From Narcine bancroftii (taxonomy: Eukaryota), in NCBI RefSeq assembly GCF_036971445.1, contig NC_091482.1:46066001-46130000 (forward strand): a stretch of DNA of 64,000 bases. Reading direction: 5' to 3'. The notes under the pieces were generated by a model that worked only from the letters and a program-made list of their open reading frames with translations, ran no database searches and had not been told where the DNA came from. Each line of letters begins with the position of its first letter. Position 1 is the first letter of the stretch. Made by a program: the position numbers and the translations under genes. Positions 1,094 through 56,805 of the stretch are shown piece by piece.

Positions 1094-2632
1094 CTGGCAT
1101 CATCTGTGACCTCATAATTATCCACAAGTGCATTGAAGCCAATAATCTTCAAATGAAGCCACTGTTAGGGCATAAATGCAAGAAGGAGGGAATCATTCTG
1201 TTCCTCCAGTCTGCTCCACCGTTCACAGCTGAACCCTCACCTCATTCCTACGTTCTGCAGTCACCCAGGTGATTCCCTTCAGATCAAACTTACCTGTTGT
1301 TGTGAGGTTGCTTTCACCCTTCAACTCAGATGCAAGTTGTGACAATCTGCTCACGCTTACTCAAAGTTTATTCCCGTAATAGCTTGGAAATCTGCAACAC
1401 AATTTTCAGTTCTTTTTTCTTTATACATTAAATAGCCTGCTATTTTTCTCTTCGATCTCTAAATGAGCTTCCAACAGGATTTGTAAAAATGAGACGGAGA
1501 GTAACAAAGCATTTCTGGCATTGAAATAGCACGTAATAAAAACACAGACTGCATTAAGTGATTTTAATGTTGGGCAAGTGTTAAAGGTATTTCAAATGGT
1601 TTTATGTAGGCAGGGAGATTCAGTTACAACTTCGGCAGCATCTTAACTTAATGTTGGTATCAGATGAAGCAAACATTCGCCCTTTTACATCCTTATCGCA
1701 GGGCTCACTTTTGTTGAATAAGAATATGGGCTCTTTACAGTTGAGAATATTGCCATTCCCTTCCCTTCCCTTCCGTTCCCTTAAAGCTTTTCCCGTGAAT
1801 ATTGGGGACAGAGTCCGTTTCCACCGTAGCTGAGTTGGCTCCTAAACCCTTATATCCTCACATGACAGGGACATTGTACATCCTCCCAAGTTTTTCGACC
1901 TCTGTACATTGTAAACCTATAAACAGCACAATGTCATGTGATTTGAGTGGCCACAGCAGCTCACCTGCATGCACTCATGAATTGAAATTTCTTCTTCATT
2001 ATCTGTGGCCTATTTGCTTATGCCAAAAAATAATTCCCATGACAATCATCTTTCCAAAGATATACTTTTAACTATTGTGTTCAGTTACTCTTTTCATCTA
2101 AACAACTAATAGAGTTTAAAATATAAGATAATATTTAACCTATGAGCCAATATTTTTATTTGTAAAGTGAAAAGTATTGATTTTTTTAATGCCTCTCCTT
2201 GCCCCTTTCCCACTTGCTGTCGATAGAAGACGTACGCTACCTGCTATGGCATCTTAATTATATTTCAGCCACTAAGTATCTATTACACACTCCAAGCTAG
2301 CACGCTATGAAGGTCATGGGAATTCAAATAGCAAATTACACGTGGTCACTCAATTTTGATCACTAATCTCAGAGTTCAAAATGGCATCAACTGGCCCACT
2401 AGTGTAAACGAGGTGAGAGGTCACCTGAGGTTAGGTAAGACAGCCGCCAACCTCGGTCATACCAGCCCCAAAGTTTCTCACAATCACCTTAATCTTCACG
2501 TGACATTGTAAGACACTGCCCCAGTCTCATTCTGAGCTATGCCACCCATGGAATTATATATTTTTTAGAGCTATAGCAGAGTAACAGGCCCTTCCTGCCC
2601 ATGTGCCGGGCCGAGCAATCTTGAGGGTAATT

Positions 2633-2853
2633 GGGCGGCACGGTCAGCATAGCAGTTGGCGCAACGCTGTTACAGCACCAGCGATCGGGACCGAGATTTG
2701 ATCTGGCGCTGTCTGTAAGGGGTTTGTGCGTTCACCCCGTGTCTGTGTGGCTCTGATTTCCTCCCACCATTTGAAATGTACCAGAGGTTGAAGGTAATTG
2801 GGTGGCACAGGCTCATGGGCCTAAAGGTCCTGCTACCGTGCTGTATGTCTAAA
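2633..2853 (+). mobile_element. HE1-like V-SINE
   Basis: tRNA-like head GGGCGGCACGG, then V-domain GCTGTCTGTAAGG.GTTTGT.CGTTC.CCCCGTGTCTG. Confidence 0.8.
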
Positions 2854-3811
2854 CAGCTCTTCTTCCAATTAGGTTCCTCACTGCCCTTTGAACTTCACAG
2901 GAATTTTTCAATTTCATATTTGCACTGCCCTGATTATTCCATGCAGCCACTGGTAATGAGGATCAACTTTTGTTTCCTCTTTATGCTTTAACAACATATC
3001 TTAAATAGCGGGTAATGATAAGTCAGATACAAGATGGAGAGGGAGAATGTGATTGTGTGGTGCTAGAATAACAATCTTGCTCTCAACATTAGCAATACCA
3101 AAGAGTTGACTGTGGACCTTAAAAAAGGAATGTGGAGGGATCGCACACCTGTCTTCATTGGCAGACAGCGGTATGGAGGGTGAGCTTCCAATCACTGAGC
3201 TTTCATGAGACCTCTTTTGGGACAGCACATCAAAGTACCTGCGAAGAAAGCACACCAATGTCTCCACTGTATAAGAAGTTTGAAGAGACTGCCCAACTCC
3301 TATACTCAGTACTTTTATTTATGTGACAAAAGCGCTCCACAATCACATACGACTGGGTTAAATGCAAATGAAGCAACCTGCTGTTTGACCAGGTAGGCCA
3401 ACGCAGACACAGTCCCAGGGTCGGGGTACTGTCTGGGGACAAAGACCTCCAGGTTCCTCTTCTTCAGGATGGGAGTGCATTGCAGGTGAACGTACAAAGG
3501 AAAGGAAGGGGTAGAGGAGAGGAAAGAACAACGGAAGATCTATGGAAAGGTGGAAGACAGACTAAACTAAATGACAAAGAGATTCGATTAAAGCAAAAGT
3601 GGATAGGAAAGAAACAAAAGTGTTGTTGAAGGGTGTCAGCCAAAAACATTAATCATTCTACTTCTCCCAAACAAAAAAGGTTTGAGGCTTGTAAAATGCA
3701 TTAGTGAGAGCACCGAAAATTTACTATGTCTCTGAACGAACACTTGCAGTACAACTTGAACAATGGCTTCTTCCTTCATGCCACAGAGGATCACTAGAGT
3801 CTCCCTCCTTC

Positions 3812-5239: not shown

Positions 5240-5862
5240 AATATTTTATTCACAATAAATTTTTTATAGAAAGAAAACTGTTCAAAACTCTTTGTACCCT
5301 TCAATATATTTTACATTAATTTCTATGTACATCATTGCCACTACTGTGGCTCCTTGTCATTACTCCCCCTCTGTTATTTGAGGGGCTTTCTCTCAAAGCC
5401 CAGAAATGGGAGGACTCTAGACCATCCCTTGGGGCCACAGCACATTTAAGTAAAAGCCTTGTTTTCTTTTCACTTTACATAGCATAAGTATTTAATATGT
5501 TTTTTTTTTATGTAGGTGTATGGGAAAAAGCAAAACTTGACTGCTTCACAGGGAAGGAGGCACATAGACTTGGAGCAGAGTCCTGGAGGGGAGGGGCCTA
5601 CAGCTGAAAAAAGGTTGAGAATGGCTGCTCTAGACTGTGGCCCTTCCCCACAGCGCCATCGCATTGGCTGCCTCACTGTATCCCTCAGCATGTACTCCTG
5701 CAGCCTGGAAGGTGCCAGTCGGCAGCGTTCTCTCACTGACATCTCCCTGTGCTGGAAGCTCAACAGGTTTCGGGCTGACCAATGGGAGTCTTTCGCCGAG
5801 TGGATGGTCTTCCAGCAGTTCTGGGTGTCTGACTCTGGGTGCATCTCCAGGGACAGTCCATA
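5240..5862 (-). mobile_element. Tx1/L1-clade LINE 3' fragment, interrupted by a hAT MITE
   Basis: Minus ORF CWKTIHSAKDSHWSARNLLSFQ...RLQEYMLRD matches the Tx1-type ORF2 C-terminus; AATAAA near 5245 on minus. Confidence 0.7.
5423..5627. mobile_element. hAT (Charlie-type) MITE
   Basis: Perfect 8-bp TSD CTCTAGAC (5415-5422, 5628-5635); end GTTGAGAATGGCTG shared with copies at 46635 and 59609. Confidence 0.8.
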
Positions 5863-53917: not shown

Positions 53918-54497
53918 AAGAACTTCAGATTTCTGTGTCAACATCTCTGAAGATCTGTCCTGGGGCCTCCATGTCGATGCAGTCATGAAGAATGTTTTCC
54001 AGCAGTTATACTTCGTGAGGAGTTTGAGGAGATTTGGTATGAACCCAAAGATTCTCAAAAATTTCTACATGTGTACCATGAAGAACATTCAGTCTGGTTC
54101 TGATGCACAAGGCAGGAAAATACTCCAAGGATTTGTTAACTCAGCCAGCGACATCACGGGCACCAGTCTTCACTCCATCAAGGACATCTACAAGAAGCGG
54201 TATCTTAAGAAAGCAGTCTCAATCCTCAAGGTCATGCCCTCTTCACTCTGCCACCATCAGGAAGGAGGCATAGGAGCCTGAAGATGAGCACCCAATGGTA
54301 CAAAGTAGCGACTTCCCCGACTCCATCAGATTTCTGAATGGACAATGAACCCCAGATGCTGCCTCACTTTCTCTCGTTTTCTTGCACTATTTATTTATTT
54401 TTGAAATGTAATTTATAGCAATATTTTCACTATAACATTTCACTTTCACTGCAAAATGACGAATTAGCGTGACATGGTCATGACCATAAATTCTGAT
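53918..54497 (+). mobile_element. Rex-Babar LINE 3' fragment
   Basis: QQLYFVRSLRRFGMNPKILKNFY motif; tail ..CATGACCATAAATTCTGAT. Confidence 0.8.
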
Positions 54498-54528
54498 ATC
54501 TTATGGACCAATGGTCTTAAAATGCAAT

Positions 54529-55986
54529 CCTAAATAATAGGTTGTCAATATGCGGGCAGCGGGATAATCATCCCCCTTGTGTTCACGTTTCCCCTATCTG
54601 GGGTTCTGTGTCACTCTGAACTGCTACTTTGTGCTGGCCCATGTTTTCATTACACTGTGTCTGTTTCTAGTCTCTGTTGGCCTCGTATCTTCTCCGGTAG
54701 GTCTCTGTATCATTCATTCAACAGTTTTTACAATTTGTATGGTGTTAGGGTTAGAGTTAGTGTTTAGTGGTGTTTCTTGGTAAGCTCGGGTCTGTGTTAG
54801 GGTGTCCCTGTAATTTGTCCTAAGTGTGCTAGCCCATGGAGTCTGTTGTGGAGATTGCTGTTGTTGTGGAGCTTTTATTTGTGTTGTCTTTGGATGGGGT
54901 TGAGACTGGGTAAGGGTGAGGGTTAGGGTGTTAATATGTGGACAGCAGGATCATCATCCCCCTAGTGTTCACTTGTTGCCCCTCTCTGGGGTACTGTGTC
55001 ACTCTGAACTGCCACATTAGAGTTAGGATCAGGGTTAAGGCTAGGGTTAGGGTTAGAATTAGGTTGTCAGCTTAGGTCTATGATAGAGTGTTCCTGTAAT
55101 TAGTCCTAAGTGTTCTGTTCCAGGGAGTCTGTTGTGGGAATTGGTGTTGTTGTGGACCTTTTATTTGTGTTGTCTTTAGATGGTGTTGAAACTGGGTAAG
55201 GGTTACCTCTGTGATTCCTGATTGTGTTCTGGCCTGGGGGTCTGTCCTCATCAGTGCCTGGCAGAGTTAGCCGAATGGACTTAAGGCCCATGTGAAATTA
55301 CACTGGGTTATTTGGGGGTTTTAGGATTAGGGTTAAGTCTGGGTAAGGGTAACTTTATGTCTCTGATTGTGTCCTGGCCTAGAATCTACCTCAGGCAGTG
55401 CCTGTTTGAGTTTGCTCTTAGGCCTTAAGGCCCTTGTGGGATTGGTTTTGTGTTGTTGGAGCTTTAGGATAAGGTAAAGCCTGGGTAAGGTTGATCGTGA
55501 TGTGTTTGGAGTTGGTGTTTCTAGGTTGAGGTCTGGGTTAGGGTGTCCCCCAGGTGTTTGGGGTTGTGTAGATAGGGTGATATGATAGGATTTGTGTCTT
55601 GGGGTATTCAGTTGGAGTATAGCTGGGGAGGGATTGTGGTGATGGGTTTGGGTTGGGTGGGATTTTGAAAAAAAGTGGGGGATGGGTTTGGATAGTTGGG
55701 GGTGTTTGGGAATTTTTGGAGGGTCCACTGGATGGCTCAGTTGGTGAATCCCTTTCTGGATGATCGCCGGCCCTAATCGTTCAATTGCCTCACACCCCCG
55801 GGCGCACCTTAGTCTCGTCATTGTCATTCAGTGGGTTAGTACTTGGATAGTGGACCGTTAGACAAGGTTGGGGTGGGGAGGGTTTGGGTCAGGGATTGGG
55901 GTGGTGATGGAGGGCTAGGGGGAGGAAGAAGAGGAAAGTGGAAAGATGTAGAGAAAAGAGAGAGGAGAGAGAAGAGGGGGGATTTG
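54529..55986. repeat. GT-rich, telomere-like complex repeat insert flanked by a 65-bp direct duplication
   Basis: Scattered TTAGGG/GGGTTA/GGGTAA runs, internal diverged repeats; flanks 54464-54528 and 55987-56051 differ at 3 positions. Confidence 0.85.
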
Positions 55987-56635
55987 TTAGCGTGATATGG
56001 TCATGACCATAAATTCTGATATCTTATGGACCTATGGTCCTAAAATGCAATGAAACTTGGAGAGGGAATTTGATCCGAAATAATAGGTGTTGGACCAGAG
56101 GTCAGAGTTGCAGGAATGCAGCAGACCGGAGAGGTTCCATGGGAAGCAAGGAAGGGGTGAAGCAGCGGAGGGATTCCTGCCAGGACGCCGGAGCTTATAA
56201 TGTAGAACAGAGAGCTGAGGTAGCATAGATGAGCTCAGTGAATGAGATAGTATGAGGTAGAACACAGGCTGGGTTACAAATTTTGGAAATGAATGGTGAA
56301 TCAGCAGCTGATTGGAGAAGCATGGATAAGAGACAGCAGCCGATTGGCCAAGGTGGAGGTCATGATAGAAACAGAGAGGGGAGCAGATAGGGAGCCATCG
56401 GGGCCATTGAGGAATGTGAACAATCTGGCTCACCGAAGCTATGGGTGACTGGAGTCAATGATGGGCTGGTGGTGTTTGTGCCACGGTTTTGAAGCCAACA
56501 GCTCTGGATTTCCCAAAGGCACTGACTGAAATCCTGAGTAATTGAAAAATCCGCACGGAAAATGTGATGGCAGTGGAGAGATTGAATGAGGTGATGATAA
56601 GGAAAAATTGGATACCTTCAATGTGCATGGGGAGG

Positions 56636-56805
56636 CACAACACCAGAGAAACTCAGCAGGTCAAATAACGTACTTTATTGAGCAAAGAGTTAGAGACAGA
56701 AAGATATCTTTATCTTTGCTCCATAAAGTTTGACCTCTGCTGAGTTTCTCCAGCATTGTATTTTTACTCCAACTCCAGTGTCCTGCAGATGTTTGTGTTT
56801 CACTA
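56636..56805. mobile_element. Hairpin-type Penelope pseudo-LTR remnant
   Basis: GAGAAACTCAGCAGGTCAAA / TTTGACCTCTGCTGAGTTTCTCCAGC arms. Confidence 0.6.

Follow-up and report, generated by a model that had tools for sequence, protein, structure and literature searches.

A 1,451-base insert in the genome of Narcine bancroftii is the 3′ untranslated region (UTR) of a 5′-truncated Penelope-like retrotransposon, and long target duplications are a trait of its family. The insert lies in a stretch of 64,000 nucleotides (GCF_036971445.1, contig NC_091482.1, positions 46,066,001–46,130,000 of the forward strand), which is referred to as the window, and all coordinates without a contig are those of the window. 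Judging from the junctions, we put at about 65% the probability that the family inserts by target-primed reverse transcription, which starts from a G-strand nick and is followed by second-strand resolution at a distant upstream site. No enzymes are more closely related to telomerase than Penelope-like reverse transcriptases (RTs), and the completion of their insertion is a standing question. The family offers a defined substrate, target, and footprint for testing second-strand resolution, and also a test of the link between dispersed and telomeric Penelopes.

The insert and its flanking duplication

The original prediction was based on a 65-mer repeated on both sides of a telomere-like insert, and this pair is present at 54464–54528 and 55987–56051 (95% identity, 3 mismatches). 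When one 23-bp gap was allowed, the match extended to 54464–54542 versus 55987–56088, with 75 of the 79 aligned bases identical, and the full target duplication at this locus is 102 bp rather than 65 bp. The left copy (54464–54542, plus strand, 79 bp) has a 23-bp deletion between 54526 and 54527, and the right copy (55987–56088, plus strand) has all 102 bp. The last 5 bases of the left copy are common to the 3′ terminus of the element, an overlap that would represent priming microhomology, and the first 2 bases of the right copy coincide with those that follow in the family sequence, i.e., 5′-junction microhomology. A genome search with 55975–56620 returned these two copies only. The duplicated segment crosses the end of an older LINE, as had been proposed: a high-copy LINE tail makes up roughly the first 39 bases, after which the sequence is single-copy (contig depth ∼750 versus ∼9), so the segment is host target DNA. 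This LINE 3′ fragment (approximately 53931–54502, plus strand), the tail of which lies inside the duplicated target, matched Pfam PF09004 at E 5e-4, under the cut-off, and we take it to be Rex-Babar-like.

It is very improbable that the duplication is unrelated to the insertion, i.e., that it is an assembly mis-join, an older tandem duplication, or a terminal repeat carried by the element. The short-read contigs (one sample, with a small-share second organism) leave room for a mis-join in that, among the contigs listed, none joined the two sides of the insert and the left junction was uncovered, while the right junction was bridged by just 28 element bases; these contigs therefore neither support nor contradict the assembly. 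The two copies in the window, however, differ at 4 sites and by the 23-bp gap, and the duplicated segment is single-copy elsewhere. An element-borne LTR or split direct repeat was rejected since the 65-mer is absent from other copies of the element, in agreement with the earlier view of the 65-mer as duplicated target.

The insert itself, at 54538–55988 on the minus strand with its 3′ end at 54538, consists of the last 1,451 bases of the family 3′ UTR of a Neptune-like element, contains no ORF, and is truncated about 330–340 bases before the stop codon of the longer copies; it is an old, dead fragment. The reported G/T skew of the plus strand was measured as 33% G and 34% T. TTAGGG-like hexamers with ≤ 1 mismatch numbered 39, against 22 ± 5 in 300 Markov resamples (maximum 36), and exact hexamers numbered 6, against 1.7 ± 1.4 (maximum 7), so that the predicted clustering corresponds to a real yet modest excess. 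The diverged internal repeats that had been noticed resolve into three pairs. First, 54924–55018 (minus strand) is a diverged internal copy of the element 3′ terminus that pairs with 54538–54630 at 85% identity; TTAGGG-like bases precede it on the plus strand, and it is likely to represent a past self-insertion. The other two are a 138-bp pair (54780–54917 and 55066–55203, 86%) and a ∼150-bp pair (55192–55348 and 55339–55490, 72%), and the copy number of the unit of the latter differs among element copies. A degenerate TTAGGG tract at 55017–55063 (plus strand) is CCCUAA-like in the element RNA. There is a purine tract at the right end of the insert, as described, but it is an internal part of the element and not its end.

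A dispersed Penelope-like family with a fixed 3′ end

When the genome was searched with 54400–56700, at least 134 matches were found (the best 40 of 664 candidates were scored), and apart from the self-hit all of them fell within the insert. A 21-base terminal motif, allowing ≤ 1 mismatch, gave 75 matches along the large contigs, whereas its reversed control gave 0. Ten copies contain both ends of the window insert; their left end is common and their right ends run 0 to about 4,000 bases further, and the element therefore has a fixed 3′ end and variable 5′ truncation, with its sense strand on the minus strand of the window. Identity to the window copy was 76–95% (median, 85%; n = 58 copies), and the family 3′ UTR is 2.1–3.2 kb long.

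Longer copies, contiguous with the same UTR, have a coding region broken by stops and frameshifts; it specifies a Penelope-type RT, then a CX4CxxC linker, and then a GIY-YIG domain with an internal CxxC. The Pfam score for GIY-YIG was 25.8 bits (cut-off, 22.6), and RVT_1 was matched at E 6e-4, under the cut-off. The CCHH motif, the two cysteines inside GIY-YIG, and a DKG motif were read in the translations of c8a, c5a, c30, and C29 copies. No intact ORF was found among the 11 long copies examined. The closest homologue in public data is an intact 740-aa RT + GIY-YIG protein (P0001; 68% identity), for which a PDB search gave no match. There were 964 homologues, of which the best 120 are RT proteins, most with GIY-YIG; the CxxC inside GIY-YIG occurs in 113 of these 120, and the CX4CxxC linker is shared by the family and its two closest homologues (P0001 and P0002) and is absent in the other 118. 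An upstream ORF gave no Pfam match itself; a fused PLE protein resembles it at 33% identity in its N-terminal portion. Two of its homologues matched Lipase_GDSL_2 at E 2.5e-5 and 5.8e-3, both under the cut-off, and through these the ORF appears weakly GDSL/SGNH-like; one upstream-ORF homologue (P0122) also has a NADAR domain (73.5 bits).

Pseudo-LTR and partial-tandem layouts are typical of the PLE class and lie outside its enzymatic definition. In two copies sharing a 5′ end, the 5′ 1.5 kb was not repeated in the 3′ 2.2 kb, i.e., no pseudo-LTR was found, and a few loci had two blocks or 200-bp terminal tandems. No Rfam hammerhead was detected at E ≤ 1 in 5 loci, where old copies may hide degenerate ribozymes; a scan of 7 copies for the hammerhead core motif gave one match, which lacked the closing pair, and the 3′ end had no stable fold (z −0.9). 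The element is thus Penelope-like by its predicted enzymes and Neptune-like by its linker and perhaps by its upstream ORF, without the usual pseudo-LTR and ribozyme.

This dispersal bears directly on the reading in the original prediction that the insert is captured subtelomeric DNA or RNA. A single capture during double-strand-break repair would account for the G/T skew and the TTAGGG-like tracts, and duplications accompany 5–16% of interstitial telomeric insertions in mammals (PMC2246262, Table 1). However, a dispersed family with a common terminus and an RT–nuclease ORF does not fit such an event, and it is refuted by other copies, in which this UTR is contiguous with a retroelement ORF; moreover, there was no match in the 7 assembled telomere arrays or 10–20 kb inward; we regard capture as practically out of the question. 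The alternative offered at the same time, a telomere-associated mobile element making widely staggered cuts, held in part: the element is mobile, its junctions are widely spaced, and its sequence is telomere-like. Its location is a different matter, as the 75 terminus matches are spread along the contigs and no copy was found in the 34 end or near-end stretches (20 contig ends, including the 7 telomere arrays, and 14 stretches 10–20 kb inward). Two 72% matches in the end stretches hit a nested piece of one reference copy and were taken as unrelated.

Several copies have unusual structures. The first ∼110 bases of a full-length copy (L050, about 5526–5630) include a GTAAG donor-like site near a 5′ end that two long copies have in common; intron retention can occur in PLEs. 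An L1/Tx1-like insertion cuts the ORF region in a set of near-identical long copies (L063, L065, and L067; G000:C29:38.76–39.96 Mb, C89, and C30), which seem to be part of a segmental duplication or a haplotype duplicate. In copy c11c (L037/L059), the element is separated from its 185–202 bp duplication by an 829-base piece next to the 5′ truncation. This piece is similar to another Penelope family and has the same orientation, and it may have arisen by nested insertion or by switching of the RT from one PLE RNA to another. Additionally, inverted element pieces adjoin the 5′ truncation in L076 (G000:C8:56.50–56.51 Mb), L128, and c24a, like the inverted arrangements described for PLEs.

Long target duplications and TTAGGG patches

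Duplications were examined in 79 stretches, which comprised, besides the window, 60 newly added loci and 18 from the initial set, with loci chosen by an intact terminus or a high score; 66 loci remained after one duplicate and 12 composite-repeat loci were removed. Locus-specific duplications touching both element ends were present at 20 of the 66 loci. They ranged from 21 to 967 bp with a median of 141 bp, as seen by an anchored search reaching 1.3 kb and a BLAST check of 1.5–3 kb, beyond which longer duplications could escape; 15 were ≥ 50 bp and 11 were > 126 bp, and the pooled identity was 3488/3638 (95.9%). Four of the 20 were seen only with the right end shifted beyond an intervening piece. 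No duplication of ≥ 20 bp was found at 43 loci, and duplications shorter than about 15 bp are inseparable from chance. When flanks were swapped as a control, none of 240 combinations reached the threshold score of 30 (maximum, 26). The 5′-junction microhomology, read by eye, was mostly 0–2 bases and was 5–10 bases in 4 of 17 loci.

These data also bear on an origin of the duplication independent of the insertion. The remaining three loci (L097, L125, and c24b) sit inside host tandem repeats, as that origin would have it, and were set aside as ambiguous. Against it, this geometry recurs at 19 loci other than the window, where the duplicated host sequence is a different one and directly adjoins the element at either end. 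Furthermore, paralogues of two host repeats, used as a proxy for the empty site, hold the duplicated segment once (11/11 among the best 11 of 40, and 7/7 among the best 7 of 40).

The 12 loci that were removed (L074, L087, L091, L092, L098, L102, L116, L119, L123, L079, L110, and L111; about 2600–3450 in element orientation) belong to a second, composite TTAGGG-rich dispersed repeat. It contains the terminal 130 bases of the family internally and has its own shared flanks, and only that block is common with the family; it is possibly a non-autonomous derivative. L161 and L163 are similar to it.

The right-hand duplication copy preserves the target and was used to read the 3′ junction. At 10 of the 20 duplication loci, the window locus not among them, the junction lies in or beside a patch of 2–3 TTAGGG repeats. 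At least 12 of 15 bases matched (TTAGGG)n on the extended (priming) strand at 10/20 loci and on the other strand at 0/20, with a background of 0.15%. The 24 bases downstream of the junction alone matched at 11/12 in 7/20 loci, against 1 of 4000 background windows, and the same test 100 bases further on gave 0/20; a primer cannot select these downstream bases by pairing. That half of the duplications are at TTAGGG patches suggests that priming likely occurs from the G-rich strand, as it does for telomerase. A GG-T-GT target motif (15/20 versus 6%) was set aside as post hoc and partly circular.

The patches at these targets look telomerase-made. At two testable loci, the patch is missing from the host paralogues and thus was added. 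Short, perfect, stand-alone TTAGGG patches gave 315 genome matches of 2–6 repeats, and none of the 40 fetched had a flanking duplication or an adjoining element. The bases upstream of the stand-alone patches are similar to the strand that the host telomerase RNA templates: 16/20 “CAC” patches extend the telomerase-RNA match, and 6/40 match 6–8 bases. The idea that the patches are templated by the element was dropped, given stand-alone patches with telomerase-RNA-like upstream bases and without duplications. The host telomerase RNA was located at L158:1501–1972 (G000:C21:109885195–109885666, minus strand; Rfam RF00024, 154 bits), and its template in this assembly is UUUAACCCUAAU, with a U-rich 5′ boundary. 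Most patches have C at a position for which the present RNA would specify T (73 C, 13 T, and 14 A in a hand count of the first 100 of the 315), possibly a fossil record of an older telomerase RNA allele.

Insertion mechanism and relation to known elements

The proposed course of insertion is as follows. The putative GIY-YIG nuclease of the element would nick the G-rich strand at or just before a TTAGGG-like sequence, and the freed 3′ end (mostly ...GG or ...GGT) would pair with a CCUA-type end of the RNA. The cDNA would then extend the G-rich strand with telomerase polarity, and its truncated end would join 20–970 bp upstream via 0–10 bases of microhomology. This joining, which would involve either a second nick some distance away or strand invasion followed by displacement synthesis, would leave the interval duplicated. 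The preferred targets would be short interstitial repeats made earlier by telomerase and also the TTAGGG tracts of the element itself, which would explain the repeated termini in the UTR; these do follow TTAGGG tracts inside the UTR and fit self-insertion. Some observations do not favor this course. The window target is weakly telomere-like (9/15 bases, ending in the five bases common to the family terminus), no intact ORF was seen in the 11 long copies examined, and in the Poseidon element of the anole, which alone among PLEs has been studied in vitro, cleavage is in AT-rich DNA and reverse transcription begins internally, at sites without homology to the target, according to the portion of PMC11167929 available to us.

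The same element could instead have entered without its nuclease, a course that is the main rival and that we consider rather unlikely. The RT would extend the 3′ ends of breaks or collapsed forks that were already there, in the manner of Athena elements at telomeres; telomerase acting at the same break would make the patch, and the cDNA end would invade upstream or sister DNA and copy back, producing the duplication. This would suit the bimodal outcome (a long duplication at 20 and none at 43 of the 66 loci), since the 43 loci fit repair at breaks as well as nicking, and also the deletions inside the duplications at the window locus and at L124. In addition, most patch loci have no more than about 6 bases between the PLE junction and the telomerase priming point, and 10 of 59 element termini follow a CAT-TAGG junction of the telomerase-patch type, a proximity that a shared break would give too. 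In contrast, the family keeps the GIY-YIG core, the CCHH residues, and the linker, and several patches appear to predate the insertion. At L100 and L121, patch bases lie partly inside both duplication copies, so the patch is older than its duplication. The patch in c9 is flanked by an older, 76%-identical repeat, as opposed to the 95%-identical duplication of the insertion. Similarly, short patches at L160 and L085, with a one-sided duplication after a short 3′ duplication, point to pre-existing patches. Among six extra loci picked for a TTAGGG tail, L160 had a short duplication, and a search over 1.5 kb found no long duplication at any of them.

Beyond the nick-primed course itself, and at somewhat less than even odds, the family may be a vertebrate nuclease-bearing Penelope that seeks short telomerase-made TTAGGG patches throughout the genome, adds to their G-rich strand in the manner of telomerase, and with each insertion duplicates as much as a kilobase of host DNA; it would be a living-lineage intermediate between dispersed Neptune and telomere-bound Athena/Coprina elements and would carry a TTAGGG-specific GIY-YIG nuclease. 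With the Neptune-clade EN+ PLEs it shares an RT with a C-terminal GIY-YIG, two cysteines within GIY-YIG, a CX2-5CxxC linker, and 5′ truncation, and perhaps a weakly esterase-like upstream ORF, insofar as these are covered in the available parts of PMC8557442, PMC5408684, and PMC12602865. The same excerpts describe the linker as a Neptune feature shared with Nematis and propose a simple-repeat bias for it, and an upstream esterase-like ORF is reported for fish and mollusc Neptune-like PLEs (PMC5408684, in part). Compared with that clade as described there, the family has a TTAGGG-like target and not (TA)n, a 2.1–3.2 kb telomere-like 3′ UTR, and no detected pseudo-LTR or hammerhead. Naiads also lack the hammerhead, and Neptune is paraphyletic with Coprina (both from the portion of PMC8557442 at hand).

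The EN− Athena and Coprina elements are characterized by telomeric repeats and by priming from G-overhangs (PMC8557442, in part), and they have, like the family, reverse-complement telomeric repeats near the RNA 3′ end and a cDNA that extends the G-rich strand (PMC8557442 and PMC3846280, in part). Unlike them, the family keeps a nuclease, is interstitial and was not found at the seven assembled telomeres, makes target duplications, and has no detected hammerhead. TRAS/SART LINEs and Tx1-1_ACar of the anole share the preference for telomeric-repeat targets, but they are of another element class with another nuclease and lie in terminal arrays, whereas the family is found at short interstitial patches and loosely similar sites; the sole vertebrate telomeric-repeat element in the accessible text of PMC10088271, the source for this comparison, is a Tx1 LINE. 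Telomerase-made interstitial telomeric sequences resemble the target patches in having few repeats, target deletions, and upstream bases that match the telomerase RNA beside the template, and they correspond to the target and not to the 1.45-kb insert (PMC2246262, in part).

As to the length of the duplications, EN+ PLEs have short or variable ones in the passages available from PMC3846280 and PMC8557442, and the rotifer Penelope/Poseidon copies have 8–10 bp (PMC3846280), against up to 967 bp in the family. Very long, variable duplications are made by the Dualen-4b_cRei LINE of Chlamydomonas and by rotifer R9 (a median of 900 bp in the former and 126 bp in the latter); these are LINEs with APE and/or RLE nucleases, and the long duplications of Dualen are ascribed to its two nucleases, whereas the family has one GIY-YIG (PMC9977147, in part). 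Within the excerpts of PMC9977147 and PMC3846280, kilobase duplications were found for Dualen LINEs only and those of Penelope were short. Nothing on PLE duplications or TTAGGG targeting appeared in the accessible portions of PMC12602865, PMC3681739, PMC4700185, and bioRxiv 10.64898/2026.07.22.740005. The literature search, which lay outside Repbase and so leaves a prior description possible, found no nuclease-bearing PLE with long duplications and TTAGGG targeting; the element class is known, and we did not find the long duplications and the TTAGGG-site preference described. The family also shows that kilobase target duplications are possible without the two nucleases of Dualen, and that such elements can make small tandem duplications in a vertebrate genome.

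TTAGGG sequence was also seen in three settings apart from the element. A patch has been amplified with an A-rich satellite at G000:C116:1.73–1.89 Mb (L145–L157, 13 matches), and also with a repeat unit of about 60 kb at G000:C11:208.77–208.95 Mb (L138–L141, 4 matches). About 1 Mb from its contig start, a perfect telomere array of > 900 bases (L254; G000:C1:1026369 and below) begins with a telomerase-type junction; it may mark a break that was healed or a join between scaffolds, or it may be a large array in an interstitial position.
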